Part shown: positions 1-5,041 of the stretch, piece by piece | Numbering within the stretch: the stretch's first letter is position 1 | Layout of the letters: each line of letters starts with the position of its first letter | Position numbers and translations under genes: made by a program | DNA from: a virus | Taxonomy: Duplodnaviria > Heunggongvirae > Uroviricota > Caudoviricetes | Reading direction: 5' to 3' (one strand) | IMG/VR virus record: IMGVR_UViG_3300023487_000049 | Coordinates: 1-5,041 of that record | DNA: 5,041 nucleotides | Notes under the pieces: model-generated | What the model was told of the DNA's origin: nothing | Seen by the model: the letters and a program-made list of their open reading frames with translations, nothing else | Databases searched by the model: none

Positions 1-2096
1 CGGGCATTGTCTCCTTGCTGTTGCTGGAACTGTCCGAGCAGTTTCAGAGCCTCGCGGATATCAGATTTCTGCTGGCTATCGGCAGATGCGAGGATTTTCA
101 CAACATTTGCCGCTGCAACCTGAGCATCAGTCTGTGCCTGGAATGCTTTAACCTGAATGGCTGCCTGTTCGTTCTGCGCTTTCTGCAATTCAGCCTGACC
201 AGCAAGAAGCTGACCTTGCGCAGCAACCATAGCCGGATCCGGCTGACTGGCCTGTTGTTGTTTCGCCTGCTCAACCATCTGCTGTTCTTCTGGTGTTCTC
301 GGCTTAATAACGCCAGACAGAAGCAACTGATTGCGGTTGTATTCTTTAAGGTCGTCCATCCCTTCGCCGTCCATATTGTCGAGAATCATCGACGATACAA
401 GGTCATGCTTCGGCGTTCCTGGCGGGATAAGTGCCAGCATGGAAAGCAACGACTTAACCGTTGCATCACGGCGAGTAGCGAACGACTGACCGACATCGAC
501 AGTCACTTCATAGTTACCCTGCGAAAGGTCGTTAAGCGCGATAACCTTCCCTGTCTGACGGTCAACCACTTCACCAGTCATCAGCGCCACGTCATCGCTG
601 CCATCCTCATTAACGATGCGCATTGGCGTATCGCTGCCATAGACTTCACGAGCCATAGAAAGCCACACGACGCCAGCACGGCGCATGGATTTAGCCATGT
701 TGTCCATGTAGATATAGGACTGCGTGTCCATCCGGTTAAAGATGCTATCAACGGTATCGGTAGCGACGTTGCTCGGCATGTTCTCAAGCTGCGACGCACC
801 TGTAATTTGCTGAATAGCCGTTCCGGTGTACTGCAATAGCCCGGCAAGAGCAGGAGGCATTTGTGTCGGAGGTGTCCAGCCAGCAACCTGAGCCTCTGAA
901 ATGACCGTTCCGTTTTTGTCCTTCTTGCTGGTCATGGGAAGAACTGCAGGTCTTTTCTTATTCCTCTCTGCCCAGTGATTCATTAATGGACCGGGAATGA
1001 AATCAACATCCACGATAGGAATGCCATCACCGCCAGCCTGAGTAGCATTATCTGCAATCATGGAAACCATCAGGTTCTCAAGACGCTGTGCATCCATCGC
1101 TTTTGCTGCGTGGCCTTCGATTCGCTCCTGATTATCAACAAATGAACGACGCCCATATACCGGGATGAGAGGAATATGTTCGCCCGGAATACGCTTCGGT
1201 TCTTCCAGCCATTCAGCGCCAGACAGAAGACCGCAATAAACTCGGCGTTTCTTCACCGTTCGCTCGCCAATCAGTTCGAATGCACCATCGGTCAGCTCGT
1301 CGACAATATCTTTGATTTGCTCTTCATCATAGATTGCCGTTTCTCCGCTGACAGGGTTACGCCATGCTGTGAGCTTCACCTTCTCTATGCGGACTTCGTA
1401 GTAGCGTCCAACATAGATGGCATCTGGCGTTGACCAGTCATATTGAGTGCCAGTGTCATCACGAGAAAGGCTTGCCGCGATGGAATCAGGGTATTCAGCC
1501 TCGAACGCTTTAGGCGTCATGGAGAACATTTCCATAGCCCACATAGCATCAGAACGGTCATATTGCTTGCTGTCCTGATCGAAGAAGACGCATGTCGCTG
1601 GGTCGTAAACAGGAAGAAGGCTGATGCGTCGCTGCTCGTTACTCGGATCCATTTCATCTTCGTAATCGGCACACATGCGGAAACAACCGAATCCGCCCGT
1701 TACAGCATCATCAAATGCGTTATCACACGCTTCGCCACCGGATGTTTCCTGATAGTCAGCGCGGAATTTGCCGTTCATCTTTTCGGCTAACGCTTCCGAT
1801 GCCTTATCGTCCTTAGGCCTGAATTTAACGCTGATGCGATTCTGTCGATACTCGCCAATGATGCGATCACATTCACGGGCAATCTTATTCAGTTCAAAGC
1901 GCGGGTAATGCTCAAACCTGCCTTCATCAAATGAGTAACCAGCGTTTGTGCTGCCTTCCCACTGTGCGCCGGACACCCGGACGAAACGTTGAGCCTCAAT
2001 AATCTGCTCACGCATATCCTTCGTTGCTGACCAGGCATTATCAAAGTTGCACAGCACCTTGCGATGCCAGTCAGTCATCTTTCTATCATCAGCCAT
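1..2096 (-). CDS. Portal protein (P22 gene 1 family), N-terminal ~698 codons; C-terminus lies beyond the window start
   Basis: My own minus-strand translation is open with no stop from the ATG at 2096 (in-frame alternative ATG at 2099) down to position 1: [23 protein letters not shown] ... ALKLLGQFQQQQGDNA. Not in the ORF track because it runs off the window. GGAG sits 7 nt upstream of the 2096 ATG. Segments KKRRVY, GEHIPLIPVYG and the Q/A-rich C-terminal helical region (PRTPEEQQMVEQAKQQQ, AQGQLLAGQAELQKAQ) resemble the P22 portal as I recall it (RRRVY, GEHIPIVPV, PETPEEQQWLVEAQQ). Gene order terS-terL-portal supports the call. Confidence 0.85.
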   Translation of the reverse strand, partial: MADDRKMTDWHRKVLCNFDNAWSATKDMREQIIEAQRFVRVSGAQWEGSTNAGYSFDEGRFEHYPRFELNKIARECDRIIGEYRQNRISVKFRPKDDKASEALAEKMNGKFRADYQETSGGEACDNAFDDAVTGGFGCFRMCADYEDEMDPSNEQRRISLLPVYDPATCVFFDQDSKQYDRSDAMWAMEMFSMTPKAFEAEYPDSIAASLSRDDTGTQYDWSTPDAIYVGRYYEVRIEKVKLTAWRNPVSGETAIYDEEQIKDIVDELTDGAFELIGERTVKKRRVYCGLLSGAEWLEEPKRIPGEHIPLIPVYGRRSFVDNQERIEGHAAKAMDAQRLENLMVSMIADNATQAGGDGIPIVDVDFIPGPLMNHWAERNKKRPAVLPMTSKKDKNGTVISEAQVAGWTPPTQMPPALAGLLQYTGTAIQQITGASQLENMPSNVATDTVDSIFNRMDTQSYIYMDNMAKSMRRAGVVWLSMAREVYGSDTPMRIVNEDGSDDVALMTGEVVDRQTGKVIALNDLSQGNYEVTVDVGQSFATRRDATVKSLLSMLALIPPGTPKHDLVSSMILDNMDGEGMDDLKEYNRNQLLLSGVIKPRTPEEQQMVEQAKQQQASQPDPAMVAAQGQLLAGQAELQKAQNEQAAIQVKAFQAQTDAQVAAANVVKILASADSQQKSDIREALKLLGQFQQQQGDNA

Positions 2097-3592
2097 CATC
2101 CAACTCCGCAAGGTATGTTGTAGCTTGAGTAATCAATCTCTTTAGGATCTTTGATGTCTCGCATCTGTATTGCAAAACGCCTCATCATGTAGCCATAGCG
2201 AACAGCAGAAAGGATGTCGTCATTTAGCTTGACGATCTTCCCGTTCTCATCGCGGTGATACAGACGAAACTCTTCAAAGAATGGCTCGCAGGTGTTAAAT
2301 ACCTTGAAACGACCGTCGAGCATCATGTCGCGTATCTCTGCTATCCCGGGTTCGACCGCATTACCTCCATCAGGCCATGTTGCATGATCTGGCAACATGT
2401 CGAACCCAGCTTCGGCGTATTGTTCCTTGAGCTGAGCGCCGCCTCCCTTTTCGTGCTGATGCCCGTCATGAGGCCAAGCCGTAGGGGTGTTTTTGCTCCA
2501 TGCTTTAACAGCACTCCATGCCTCTGTCGCCTTCTTCTGTTTGGCCTTCCAGACGCGAGAAAGATAAATCACGTCCTCGTCTTTATCCCACCAAAGCTGG
2601 ATATGTGCCTGTGGGTGATCCCATCCGAAGTCCATTGCATTGATGACGTAGAAGTGATCAGGACACTCGAACGGCTGACACTTAATCGTCTCTTCCGGTA
2701 TCTGGAAGATTCGACCGCTACCCATCGTAGGAATACCGCGAGCACGCGCCTCTCTCTCATGCTCAGGATAGGATGCGATGATTTGCTCTTTCTGCTCGTC
2801 GGTGTAGTGCTCAGCGTCATAGATGGTCATGTTGACCACTTTCTGCGACTTGCTGGGGTTCTTCAGGAACTTGGTAACAACGTCAGACATCCCCATCAGC
2901 GGGGTAAACGTCAGAATTGAGAATTGCCCGTATTTGTTGGTACGGGTAAGACCTTCGCCATAAATGCTGTATGGTGGCTCTTCGTCAAACCACACGCCGT
3001 GGATTGTGTCACCCTGCCAGCGAGCGCGGCCTTGCGAGTATGGCTTGAAGTAGCAGATTGAAATGCCATCTTCAACGCCATCAGCCGTGTGATGCTTAAC
3101 CAGAAGATGATCAACAAGGTTCGGAAAGAAAGGAGACTTCTTCCAGCTAATGATGTCCTCTTTCGGTATGGAACCGTAGCCCGGCTCGTCATTCTCTTCA
3201 ATACGACCGCACAGGATGCGTTGAGTCGTTTTGGTTACCGTCTCGTTTGTCTCGCCACCAATCCAGAAGACAACAGGCTCATAGAAACGCTTACCTTTCC
3301 ACTCCCCACCATATTTACCATCAGCCGGATAGCCTTTTGTTCCAGGATAACGCCCTGTAAGGTGAAACGCGACTTCAGCAGCACCAGTAAATGACTTACC
3401 AAGCTGGTTGCCAGCCATAAAACATCGCTCTGGATAGTCATGTCCGGCGTCGATGAACTCACGCTGTTTGCTGTATGGCGTAAATTCATATAGCAGGTGT
3501 GTGTTCCGGTAGTTCTCTTCTTCTTCGAGTAGCTCGAGCAATTCGATTTGCTCTTCGTCGCTCAGGTTATCAAGAATCGCGTCCAGTTCCAC
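2096..3592 (-). CDS. terL: Terminase large subunit (P22 gene 2 type), 498 aa, GTG start
   Basis: Track ORF 2096..3592 minus. N-terminus [27 protein letters not shown] matches what I recall of P22 gp2. P-loop/Walker A-like AGNQLGKS is encoded at 3392..3415 and a Walker B-like hydrophobic stretch ends in VWFDEE. Length is close to the 499 aa I recall for P22 TerL. GTG start at 3592 with AAGGAG about 10 nt upstream. Lies immediately downstream of terS and upstream of the portal. Confidence 0.93.
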
Positions 3593-4058
3593 GGCTGAAT
3601 AGCTCCTTGATACGAGAGCGTCGCTTATCGAGATCTCCCTTATCAGGTGTCACGTCTTCAACTTGCGACTGCTCTTTGAGGCCCAAATCACGGGCGATGA
3701 TGTTAGCGTTGAGAAGGTCAGCGGCTGCGCCAGAGAATTTCTGGTCGTAGATGACCTGTTCTGCTCGCGTAACGACTTCAGATAAATCTTCTCGCAGGCG
3801 ATATGTGCGCCATGTTTCAAGCGTCACATCAATGAACAGAGTGAGTCCGGTAATGGTCATCGCTCGCATCTTGGCGATAGGCTCTTGTATCACTTCACCC
3901 TGATACGAGAATGCCTTCATCTCCCATAGCGGGTTAGCTTCTACCCACTCGAAGTATTCACAACAAGCAGCCCACAGCGCCTCGGGCGACTCGAATTTAG
4001 GATTTCGCCCATGACTACTGCGGGCCTCCCAAAATCGGTTGCCCTTTGGTGCTGCCAT
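3570..4058 (-). CDS. terS: Terminase small subunit (P22 gene 3 type), 162 aa
   Basis: Track ORF 3570..4064 ([11 protein letters not shown]...); I prefer the second in-frame ATG at 4058 ([38 protein letters not shown]...) because the GAG-containing purine stretch is only about 3 nt from the 4064 ATG but about 8 nt from the 4058 ATG, and 162 aa matches P22 gp3. The sequence matches P22 gp3 as I remember it. It contains the pac sequence and its 3' end overlaps the terL start by 23 nt in a different frame. Confidence 0.9.
3764..3791 (-). other. pac: pac site (headful packaging initiation site) embedded in terS
   Basis: The minus strand reads GAAGATTTATCTGAAGTCGTTACGCGAG (reverse complement of 3764..3791), encoding residues E90-A99 ([10 protein letters not shown]) of terS. 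This matches the ~22-bp P22 pac site in the middle of gene 3 as I recall it from the literature. Exact boundaries of the functional site are uncertain. Confidence 0.65.
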
Positions 4059-4093
4059 ATTCATCTCACTTAATTGTCATTTCAGGTTGAGCA

Positions 4094-4336
4094 TCATGCT
4101 CCGGTAGTGAACAGGTCTAACGCTTCCTTCGATTTACGCACCGCTTCGATAGTGCGGGTAGTGATATCTGAATTAGCGCCGCCTGACTGGAAGTGAATTT
4201 TGAATAGCTCAAGATTCAGCTCGTCAGTACCAATGAACTGAAATGCTTCCTCTGCAGCTGCGTTCTGGTTCATGACCAGTTTGTAAATCTCTAACTGGAA
4301 TTTCTGTTCTTCAGTCATGGGAATAATCTCTGCCAT
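4094..4336 (-). CDS. Hypothetical protein, 80 aa, immediately upstream of terS (position and length match P22 orf80)
   Basis: Track ORF 4094..4336 minus (MAEIIPMTEEQKFQLEIYKLV...). GGAG lies about 6 nt upstream of the ATG. Same orientation and tight spacing with terS, and the translation is not low-complexity. No recognisable domain by eye. Confidence 0.6.
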   Translation of the reverse strand: MAEIIPMTEEQKFQLEIYKLVMNQNAAAEEAFQFIGTDELNLELFKIHFQSGGANSDITTRTIEAVRKSKEALDLFTTGA

Positions 4337-4357
4337 TGTCGGCTCCGTTTATCCGTT

Positions 4358-4383
4358 AAAAGGGATATCAGTTAAGATATCCC
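4358..4383 (-). terminator. Weak terminator-like hairpin (8-bp stem GGGATATC, 6-nt loop) followed by TTTT on the minus strand, just upstream of the 80-aa ORF
   Basis: Plus strand 4362..4369 GGGATATC, loop 4370..4375, 4376..4383 GATATCCC, with AAAA at 4358..4361 (T-run on the transcribed minus strand). Stem is only 50% GC and the T-run is short, so function is doubtful. Confidence 0.25.
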
Positions 4384-4576
4384 GTGTAGGGTATAAGCCA
4401 TTGTCGAGACCACTCATTGAATGGCCTCTGCAATAACCGATGTCTTTCCATCAGTCCGCCACCACAAAGAATCTTTTTTGCCTTAAGGCAGGAGGTTCAT
4501 CTTTCAGTGGCTGCCAGTGTTATTTCCCCACTTTCTGGCTTGGGTTGTTTCGCTGTACTGCCGCAACTGGTGGTGC

Positions 4577-4596
4577 ACAGATTTAGTTAAATCTGT
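4577..4596. repeat. Perfect 9-bp inverted repeat with 2-bp spacer (ACAGATTTA-gt-TAAATCTGT), operator-like dyad in non-coding DNA
   Basis: Read directly from the sequence: 4577..4585 ACAGATTTA is the exact reverse complement of 4588..4596 TAAATCTGT. AT-rich, no flanking T-run on either strand, so more consistent with a dimeric protein-binding site than a terminator. Function unknown. Confidence 0.4.
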
Positions 4597-4613
4597 TCTC
4601 GCCTGAACTATCT

Positions 4614-4642
4614 TTTACATACCCGGATTGTGGGGATGTAAA
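4614..4642. repeat. Imperfect 11-bp stem / 7-nt loop inverted repeat (TTTACATACCC-ggattgt-GGGGATGTAAA)
   Basis: Read directly from the sequence: 10 of 11 positions pair (one A/G mismatch). No adjacent T-run. Lies in the same non-coding island as the 20-bp dyad. Function unknown. Confidence 0.35.
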
Positions 4643-4689
4643 TCACGGTTTCATTATCAAGCCCACCCGTAGATAGGCTTTGTAATGAC

Positions 4690-4878
4690 TTACCCCAGCT
4701 TTGCTCGCACCAGCGCATCTTTAGCTTCGAGCAGCTTGCGGAGACCTGCTGACTTTTCAGCACTGTCCGGCAGTGATTCATCCATCAGTGTCGCAAGGTC
4801 ACCGATTGGCTTACTTACTTCCTGCAGATGCGCAGGGAGGTGTTGATAAGCGAAATACTTCATGATTGGAGATGACAT
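4690..4878 (-). CDS. Hypothetical small protein, 62 aa, between the spanin gene and the packaging genes
   Basis: Track ORF 4690..4878 minus (MSSPIMKYFAYQHLPAHLQEVSKPIGDLATLMDESLPDSAEKSAGLRKLLEAKDALVRAKLG). GAGGGT Shine-Dalgarno about 8 nt upstream of the ATG. Same strand as the late operon. No transmembrane segment or known motif visible. Not recognised by me. Confidence 0.45.
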   Translation of the reverse strand: MSSPIMKYFAYQHLPAHLQEVSKPIGDLATLMDESLPDSAEKSAGLRKLLEAKDALVRAKLG

Positions 4879-4896
4879 TATTTACCCTCGGGTAGT

Positions 4897-4920
4897 AAAA
4901 AGCCTCGCTATTACGAGGCT
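4897..4920 (-). terminator. Rho-independent terminator-like hairpin between the Rz-like stop and the 62-aa ORF
   Basis: Minus strand reads AGCCTCG-taatag-CGAGGCT followed by TTTTT (plus strand AAAAA 4897..4901, stem 4901..4907 and 4914..4920, loop 4908..4913). Located 9 nt downstream of the Rz-like stop codon (4929..4931). Confidence 0.45.
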
Positions 4921-4928
4921 ATGATTGT

Positions 4929-5041
4929 TCATTTCAGGCACTGCGTGTTGATGTATTCCTGCAGCGCTCTCAGTGATGTTTGGTCGCTGATGATTCCGGA
5001 TCTGATACCGAGAACGTTTCGTCCAGCAACTGGAGAGAGTT
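4929..5041 (-). CDS. i-spanin (Rz-like) C-terminal fragment; gene start lies beyond the window end
   Basis: Minus-strand frame open from the window edge to the TGA at 4929..4931: ...SPVAGRNVLGIRSGIISDQTSLRALQEYINTQCLK*. The C-terminal QEYINTQC resembles the lambda Rz C-terminus (...QKYINEQCR) as I recall it, including the penultimate cysteine. The position, directly upstream of the packaging genes in the late operon, fits a lysis cassette. Confidence 0.5.
   Translation of the reverse strand, partial: LSPVAGRNVLGIRSGIISDQTSLRALQEYINTQCLK

Follow-up and report, generated by a model that had tools for sequence, protein, structure and literature searches.

A P22-type terminase joined to a CUS-3-type portal through a junction inside the 3′ end of terL

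The terminase and portal genes described here lie on a 5,041-nucleotide stretch of tailed-phage DNA (IMG/VR record IMGVR_UViG_3300023487_000049, positions 1 to 5,041), hereafter the window, in which terS and terL genes of the P22 type are joined to a portal gene of the CUS-3/Sf101 type. This mosaic is real, has been resolved to the base, and is mechanistically plausible. The main junction does not coincide with a gene boundary and lies within terL, with the consequence that the basic tail of P22 TerL, KKIPAPIRPVRRGR, is replaced in the window by a 12-residue tail resembling that of CUS-3. As a whole, the window probably represents that end of the late operon which serves DNA packaging in an Escherichia coli P22-like (Lederbergvirus) phage or prophage, in which a P22-type cassette has been set into a CUS-3/Sf101-type background and the TerL tail has been kept with the portal. 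The background itself appears to be of the CUS-3/Sf101-like virion-assembly type.

Mosaic Structure of the Terminase and Portal Genes

Three approaches served to map the junctions: blastn between pairs of sequences, multiple alignment across the terL/portal boundary, and a sliding identity plot of 100 nucleotides (nt), with coordinates given on the reverse complement (q = 5042 − window position; Table 1). CUS-3 DNA matches the window only at q470–946 and q2908–5041, and P22 DNA matches only from q479 to about 2860, with blastn stretches of q692–950 and q951–3016. A preliminary description of this DNA had suspected a recombination junction somewhere within or close to terL or the portal gene and had proposed an identity plot and a comparison of each protein separately as the means of locating it. 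These analyses revealed an abrupt drop in identity to P22, from 92–99% for the terminase proteins to 33% for the portal, and allowed the breakpoint to be placed, the family-level junction lying 36 nt before the terL stop codon. The window contains several junctions rather than one, located at the stop codon of the upstream DUF2560 gene, in the TerL interdomain linker, at the start of the tail, in the first portal codons, and around a patch in the portal clip. At the linker, mismatches relative to P22, IME10, and SPN9CC climb from ~0–2 to 5–14 per 30 nt over q2334–2397. At the left end of the cassette, P22 contains 169 bp between ORF80 and gene 3 (P22 stretch 5079–5247) that are missing from the window. 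The CUS-3 terS gene begins only 2 nt after the DUF2560 stop codon.

The terS product is 98.8% identical in amino acid sequence to P22 gp3 and belongs to the gp3 family (PF16677, GP3_package; E 3.7e-33, 114 bits against a cut-off of 29.4). Within terS, the P22 pac 22-mer GAAGATTTATCTGAAGTCGTTA is matched at all 22 positions, with no mismatches, at nt 268–289 of the gene, which is the same offset as in P22 and in the epsilon34 annotation; no match to this 22-mer arose in 200 shuffles. TerL is of the gp2 type by its Pfam domains, Terminase_6N (E 1e-47, residues 57–302) and Terminase_6C, an RNaseH-like nuclease (E 2e-27, from residue 319), and its residues 1–485 are 91.8% identical to P22 gp2.

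This identity is unevenly distributed, and three segments of terL can be distinguished (Table 1). Segment A, taken together with terS (q951–2330, window ~2708–4091), is 90–100% identical in nucleotide sequence to P22, IME10, and SPN9CC, and residues 1–295 of TerL are 99–100% identical at the protein level. In comparisons of segment B with P22, IME10, and every P22-type TerL, identity is 65–80% in nucleotides and 77–89% in amino acids. Segment B is at least 99% identical only in E212 (MZ043897), EC.P3 (PQ657771), and JEP4 (MT740315), and the other 117 matching phage records reach no more than 80%. It was seen only beside CUS-3-type tails and portals, and no phage in the collection combined it with a tail or portal of the P22 type. 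The crystallized P22 nuclease domain (PDB 4DKW, residues 289–499) aligns to residues 289–486 of the window TerL and ends where the tail, segment C, begins. Outside this 12-residue tail, the CUS-3 TerL body gives no significant BLASTP alignment to the window TerL.

The portal is homologous to P22 gp1 over its whole length (E 3e-111) and falls in the Pfam family P22_portal (PF16510, E 2e-170 to 1.6e-169), with an identity of 33% to P22 and likewise to IME10. The portals of CUS-3 and phiv205-1 match it at 96.7% and 99.1% identity, respectively, and those of Sf6 and HK620 at 56%; an identity of at least 95% to CUS-3-type portals places the window portal in the CUS-3/Sf101 subtype. It lies outside the P22 subtype, the compared members of which are 77–98% identical to one another. 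Among solved structures, the Sf6 portal (7SFS, E 2e-249) is the nearest, the P22 portal giving E 1e-105.

These comparisons uphold the preliminary description, which had recognized a P22-like terS product, a P22-type pac sequence, and a TerL N-terminus matching P22 gp2. The P22 portal N-terminus that it gave was also correct, and the N-terminus encoded by the window does differ from it. The homology that it proposed for the rest of the portal stands, but the difference from P22 is not local to the N-terminus, as identity is 33% throughout. The other P22-like lineage from which it suspected the portal to have come can now be named as the CUS-3/Sf101 type.

Within the portal gene, a further mosaic patch of ~140–250 nt was found, which is 62–73% identical in nucleotide sequence to CUS-3, E212, JEP4, and Kapi1 and 95–99% identical to phiv205-1; 16 amino acid differences within 47 residues separate the two variants. 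The P22 portal stalk, to which this patch maps (Table 1), has been described as binding L-terminase and gp4. Covariation of the clip patch with TerL type was considered and rejected: all four combinations occur, both clip variants being found with both TerL types, and the patch therefore does not track the terminase. It may instead covary with the gp4 adaptor, the gene for which lies outside the window.

Conservation and Distribution of the TerL C-Terminal Tail

The C-termini of the relevant TerL proteins differ sharply. P22 TerL ends in MRDIRKPKEKKIPAPIRPVRRGR, those of IME10 and SPN9CC end in KKIPAPIRPIARRT, and that of CUS-3 ends in CPESAAQP-DYSSYSIPCGVG. Residues 486–498 of the window TerL are 8–15% identical to the corresponding residues of P22 and IME10, the basic, proline-rich stretch that characterizes the gp2-type tail of P22 (480-IRKPKEKKIPAPIRPVRR-497) is absent, and the net charge is −1, compared with +6 for the P22 tail. 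When compared with CUS-3, 11 of the 12 tail residues are identical, but only 24 of the 36 nt, and synonymous changes separate nine of the 11 conserved codons. The adjoining portal DNA is 93–100% identical to CUS-3-type sequences (~97% for the gene directly downstream). The retention of amino acid sequence in the face of this nucleotide divergence, beside portal DNA so well conserved, indicates that the tail is under purifying selection. Because its nucleotide identity is so far below that of the portal gene, the tail is not a recent import from CUS-3; it is an old segment that has remained constant at the protein level.

The association of TerL tails with portals was surveyed in P22, IME10, CUS-3, Sf6, HK620, APSE-2, and phiSG1 and in about 150 IMG/VR loci. 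Across these phages and loci, the type of tail follows the class of portal rather than the TerL body to which it is attached. All 69 of the parsed IMG/VR loci that encode a portal of the window type carry a DYSSY[S/N]IPCGVG tail, which is attached to a CUS-3-type body in 61 loci and to a P22-type body in 8. Among the 80 IMG/VR loci retrieved for a P22-type TerL body, the window-type tail precedes a CUS-3-type portal in 31 of 31 cases and the KKIPAPIRPIARRT tail precedes a P22-type portal in 43 of 43; the remaining 6 loci were unclassifiable.

Because contig counts are not independent, distinct lineages were also examined. The TerL proteins of Sf6 and CUS-3 (Sf6 stretch 420–1832 and CUS-3 stretch 2420–3835) are 99.8% identical over residues 1–453, whereas their last ~17 residues are wholly different: the Sf6 tail is EIYVPSSSGW in place of the CUS-3 tail, and the two portals are 55% identical. 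The pair constitutes another natural tail swap, independent of the first. HK620 and CUS-3 TerL are 98% identical over 458 residues, and here too the tail switches with the portal, the portals being 55–56% identical. A tail of the VPSSS(S/G)W type and a portal of the Sf6/HK620 class are found together in phiSG1, the TerL body of which belongs to the P22 family (41% identity to P22), and in APSE-2, which has a third body type (38–39% to HK620). The Sf6/HK620-class portals that lie beside VPSSS(S/G)W tails are 69–82% identical to one another. Skarpretter and C130_2 have the related tails PDYSGYNVPSNY and PDYSNLRVPSNR and portals that are 55–59% identical to the CUS-3 type. Thus, the P22 TerL body family carries three tails with three portal classes, and the Sf6/HK620 portal class is served by three TerL bodies with one common tail.

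Biochemical information is available for the P22 tail. P22 TerL from which residues 483–499 have been removed no longer binds the procapsid form of the portal (Lokareddy et al., 2017, PMC5290284), and the basic stretch of residues 480–497 was proposed as the portal contact and was called conserved in all P22-like phages (PMC5290284). This stretch is absent from the window, E212, JEP4, CUS-3, Sf6, HK620, APSE-2, and phiSG1, which contradicts the latter statement. Judged by sequence comparison, the basic tail of P22 is conserved only where the portal is of the P22 type.

Proposed Origin of the Chimera and Alternative Explanations

The P22-type terS–terL cassette containing pac is bounded on the left by the DUF2560 stop codon and on the right by a point 36 nt before the end of terL, and TerL is a chimera consisting of a P22-family ATPase and nuclease body and a CUS-3-type tail of 12 residues. 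In the favored and likely explanation, TerS would recognize the P22-type pac site and recruit TerL, which would then dock on the procapsid portal by means of its extreme C-terminal tail. Recombinants would be viable only if they held tail and portal together, and the position of the junction inside terL, rather than at a gene boundary, would be explained by the need for the tail to match the portal. Precedents exist in the TerL C-terminal tails of lambda, T3, and T4, which bind the portal (PMC5389665). The chimera is apparently old. In their DNA, segment B and the tail each stand far apart from their closest relatives. An old event may have linked a TerL of the P22 family with a tail and portal of the CUS-3 type, the depth of divergence being retained in segments B and C, and later exchanges may have brought in terS and an ATPase segment close to those of P22 and IME10, while the portal was homogenized with circulating CUS-3-type phages.

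Several considerations weigh against attributing the match with the portal to the tail. The loci that were counted are contigs of shared ancestry and do not represent independent events, and the independent combinations of body, tail, and portal that are documented number about seven. The case for binding of the tail to the portal is a comparative one. The tail adjoins the portal gene, so that physical linkage alone favors their co-transfer. Segment B is likewise confined to phages with a CUS-3-type portal, so that elements other than the tail may also be matched. Finally, each of the two portal clip variants combines with either TerL type, and this pairing does not reveal where on the portal the tail would bind.

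The possibility that linkage accounts for the whole pattern amounts to a neutral mosaic, in which the 36-nt junction arose by chance and the tail hitch-hiked with the portal gene without functional matching. The tail abuts the portal start and the genes overlap by 1–4 nt, such that a crossover slightly upstream would carry the tail along, and many of the loci in the counts trace back to shared events. However, three TerL body lineages, unrelated to or deeply diverged from one another, all switch from body to tail at the same position, the tail has kept 11 of its residues despite the synonymous changes described above, and deletion of the P22 tail abolishes portal binding (PMC5290284); neutral hitch-hiking is considered very improbable. 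A different division of labor, in which the portal is matched by the nuclease domain and the tail together (segments B and C) and the co-inherited unit begins at the linker between ATPase and nuclease, is unlikely as well. It draws on the restriction of near-identical copies of segment B (≥99%) to phages with a CUS-3-type tail and portal, on the position of the second junction exactly in the interdomain linker, and on the cryo-EM structure of HK97, in which the nuclease domains lie directly below the portal clip (PMC10359639). Against it stand the TerL proteins of Sf6 and CUS-3, which share the nuclease domain (99.8% to residue 453) and differ only in their tails, yet serve portals that are 55% identical, and the CUS-3 TerL body, which is unrelated to that of the window but is accompanied by the same portal type and tail.

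Explanations that dispense with recombination have a negligible probability. The genuine homology of the portal to P22 gp1 (33% identity, Pfam P22_portal) is the sole point in favor of rapid evolution of a P22 portal by vertical descent, but the portal is 97–99% identical to the portals of CUS-3, phiv205-1, and Kapi1, the terminases of which are unrelated, and DNA identity to P22 falls from ~98% to undetectable within a few hundred bases. A chimeric mis-assembly is contradicted by the recurrence of this join, which was found in three independently sequenced isolates, in 31 IMG/VR contigs, and in at least 54 complete E. coli genomes. Both of these alternatives were rejected on the basis of the shared join, the close relatives of the portal, and the abrupt drop in DNA identity.

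With the favored explanation of a cassette exchange that left the tail with the portal, a stronger proposal can also be formulated. The identities, junction positions, covariation, and codon pattern are observations, whereas the notion that the tail by itself sets docking specificity is inferred. In its most general form, the last ~12 residues of TerL would be a portable address tag that alone sets the portal class and has been grafted naturally onto unrelated bodies, the tags being the basic KKIPAPIRP..., DYSSYxIPCGVG, and EIYVPSSSGW. This generalization is rather unlikely as it stands; if true, it would provide a testable rule for re-targeting terminases, or packaging motors, to foreign procapsids.

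Gene Layout and Additional Features of the Window

All genes of the window are on the minus strand according to the open reading frame (ORF) map, in the order DUF2560 gene, terS, terL, and portal gene (Table 1), and their products match the Pfam families DUF2560, GP3_package, Terminase_6N with Terminase_6C, and P22_portal. This is the late-operon synteny of Lederbergvirus (DUF2560/ORF80–terS–terL–portal, all encoded by a single strand and with overlaps between stop and start codons), and the gene order matches the annotated records of P22, CUS-3, E212, and HK620. The start codon of the portal gene, ATG, shares 1 nt with the terL stop codon (2096–2098), and an alternative ATG is located 3 nt upstream. 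The DUF2560 gene, which flanks the terminase cassette on the left, is kept in both parental types and is 93–98% identical in nucleotide sequence to P22 and CUS-3 alike.

Table 1. Positions of genes, segments, and junctions in the window, with reverse-complement (q) coordinates where used
Feature	Window position	Strand	Remarks
DUF2560 gene, homologue of P22 ORF80 and CUS-3 hkbM	4094–4336	−	Pfam PF10834, E 1e-42
Junction J1	~4091–4096 (q ~946–951)	−	CUS-3 similarity (97%) reaches as far as the DUF2560 stop codon; similarity to P22 extends beyond it, apart from 169 extra bp in P22
terS, P22 gp3 type	3570–4064	−	P22-equivalent start at 4058; Pfam GP3_package
P22 pac 22-mer	3770–3791	−	Inside terS; 22/22 match, 0 mismatches
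terL	2096–3592	−	GTG start; 23-nt overlap with terS, as in P22
terL segment A, ATPase domain, residues 1 to ~295	2708–3592	−	Nearly identical to P22, IME10, SPN9CC
Junction J2, ATPase/nuclease linker, TerL residues ~295–305	~2678–2708 (q ~2334–2364)	−	Jump in mismatch density
terL segment B, nuclease domain, residues ~305–486	2135–2678 (q2364–2907)	−	Diverged P22-family lineage
Junction J3, TerL body to tail, main junction	2134–2137 (q ~2905–2908)	−	36 nt inside the terL 3′ end, not at a gene boundary
terL segment C, 12-codon tail	2099–2134 (q2908–2943)	−	CUS-3 type; putative portal-docking peptide
Portal gene, CUS-3/Sf101 type	1–2096	−	Runs off the window edge; 698 residues present
Junction J4, first portal codons	~2077–2092 (q ~2950–2965)	−	DNA thereafter 93–100% identical to CUS-3-type portals
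Portal mosaic patch, residues 361–407	876–1016	−	phiv205-1 variant; maps to P22 stalk/clip residues 344–398

Additional sub-genic mosaicism surrounds pac. A patch of terS upstream of and reaching pac (nt ~70–320 of the gene; window ~3742–3991, minus strand) is divergent in E212 and IME10, at 58–88% nucleotide identity, and the E212 TerS protein is only 81% identical; the window, P22, and JEP4 are 95–100% identical to one another in this patch.

Upstream of the DUF2560 gene, most relatives are devoid of the region at window 4592–5041 (q1–450). Short matches of 88% to it occur only in SPN9CC, phiv205-1, and Kapi1, and the match to IME10 begins at q352. The equivalent slot in E. coli prophages is occupied by varied genes (Rha, KilA-N, Gp49, DUF2829), and the region looks like a hypervariable position that separates the lysis genes from the terminase. 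The small minus-strand ORFs at 4690–4878 and 4608–4781 gave no Pfam match.

Relationship to Known Phages and Packaging Systems

For P22-like phages, sub-genic mosaicism whose junctions fall at the borders of genes or domains is what textbooks describe. Casjens and Thuman-Commike in 2011 (Virology 411:393) and Leavitt et al. in 2013 are said to have catalogued terminase exchange among the P22-, Sf6-, and CUS-3-type assembly modules, and the 2011 work reportedly analyzed the same module types and exchange boundaries. Later genomes and the window demonstrate that terminase exchange does occur.

The mosaic in the window is already known biology, the ordinary mosaicism of P22-like phages, because the same join is found in E212, EC.P3, JEP4, and E. 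coli genomes and because discordant identities were reported for E212 (PMC10345575). In that paper, the E212 portal was found to be 99% identical to that of Sf101 and 35% to that of P22, the terminase was closest to those of IME10 and sal4, and the portal, scaffold, and capsid proteins were shared with Sf101 (PMC10345575). At least 54 complete E. coli genomes cover at least 80% of the window. The best matches are E. coli 1368KP (99.4% identity at 93% coverage) and, in IMG/VR, a contig (99.1% over q952–5041); a record identical to the window was not found. The value of the window is as an illustration that the basic tail of P22 is not universal among P22-like phages. A full-text literature search for a statement of covariation between tail and portal returned nothing relevant, and there is a modest chance that the rule of the tail as an address tag has not yet been written down explicitly.

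Among more distant systems, a short TerL C-terminal segment sets the binding of the cognate portal in gpA of lambda and phage 21 and in gp19 of T3, according to the summaries of this work in later papers (Yeo and Feiss, 1995; Morita et al., 1995; cited in PMC5290284 and PMC5389665). Those cases involve other phage groups and unrelated sequences and were established experimentally, whereas the proposal for the window is derived by comparison. Sf6 and HK620 resemble the window in the way that their TerL proteins relate to that of CUS-3, with bodies that are 98–99.8% identical and the last ~17 residues switching with the portal class; they differ in belonging to another TerL body family and in pairing an EIYVPSSSGW tail with an Sf6-class portal.

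The two parental types are each represented by several phages. The window shares with P22, and with IME10, SPN9CC, epsilon34, and ST64T, its TerS (98.8%), the pac site and its position, the ATPase domain (99–100%), and the overlap of terS with terL, but it differs from P22 in the portal (33%), in the charge of the tail, −1 in place of the +6 of the basic KKIPAPIRPVRRGR, and in the nuclease domain (77–89%). With CUS-3, and with Sf101, phiv205-1, and Kapi1, it shares the portal (96.7–99.1%), the DUF2560 region (95–99% in nucleotides), and 11 of the 12 tail residues, but the terS gene and TerL body of CUS-3 belong to a different, Sf6/HK620-like family. The closest phages are E212, EC.P3, and JEP4, which exhibit the same gene order and the same chimera in DNA that is collinear with the window and 94–97% identical, with TerL proteins that are 99.6–100% identical, including the tail, and portals that are 97% identical. 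The window is distinguished from these relatives by its terS, which is of the P22/JEP4 type, whereas that of E212 is 81% identical and carries the divergent patch upstream of pac, and by its portal clip, which is the phiv205-1 variant, whereas E212 and JEP4 have the CUS-3 variant.

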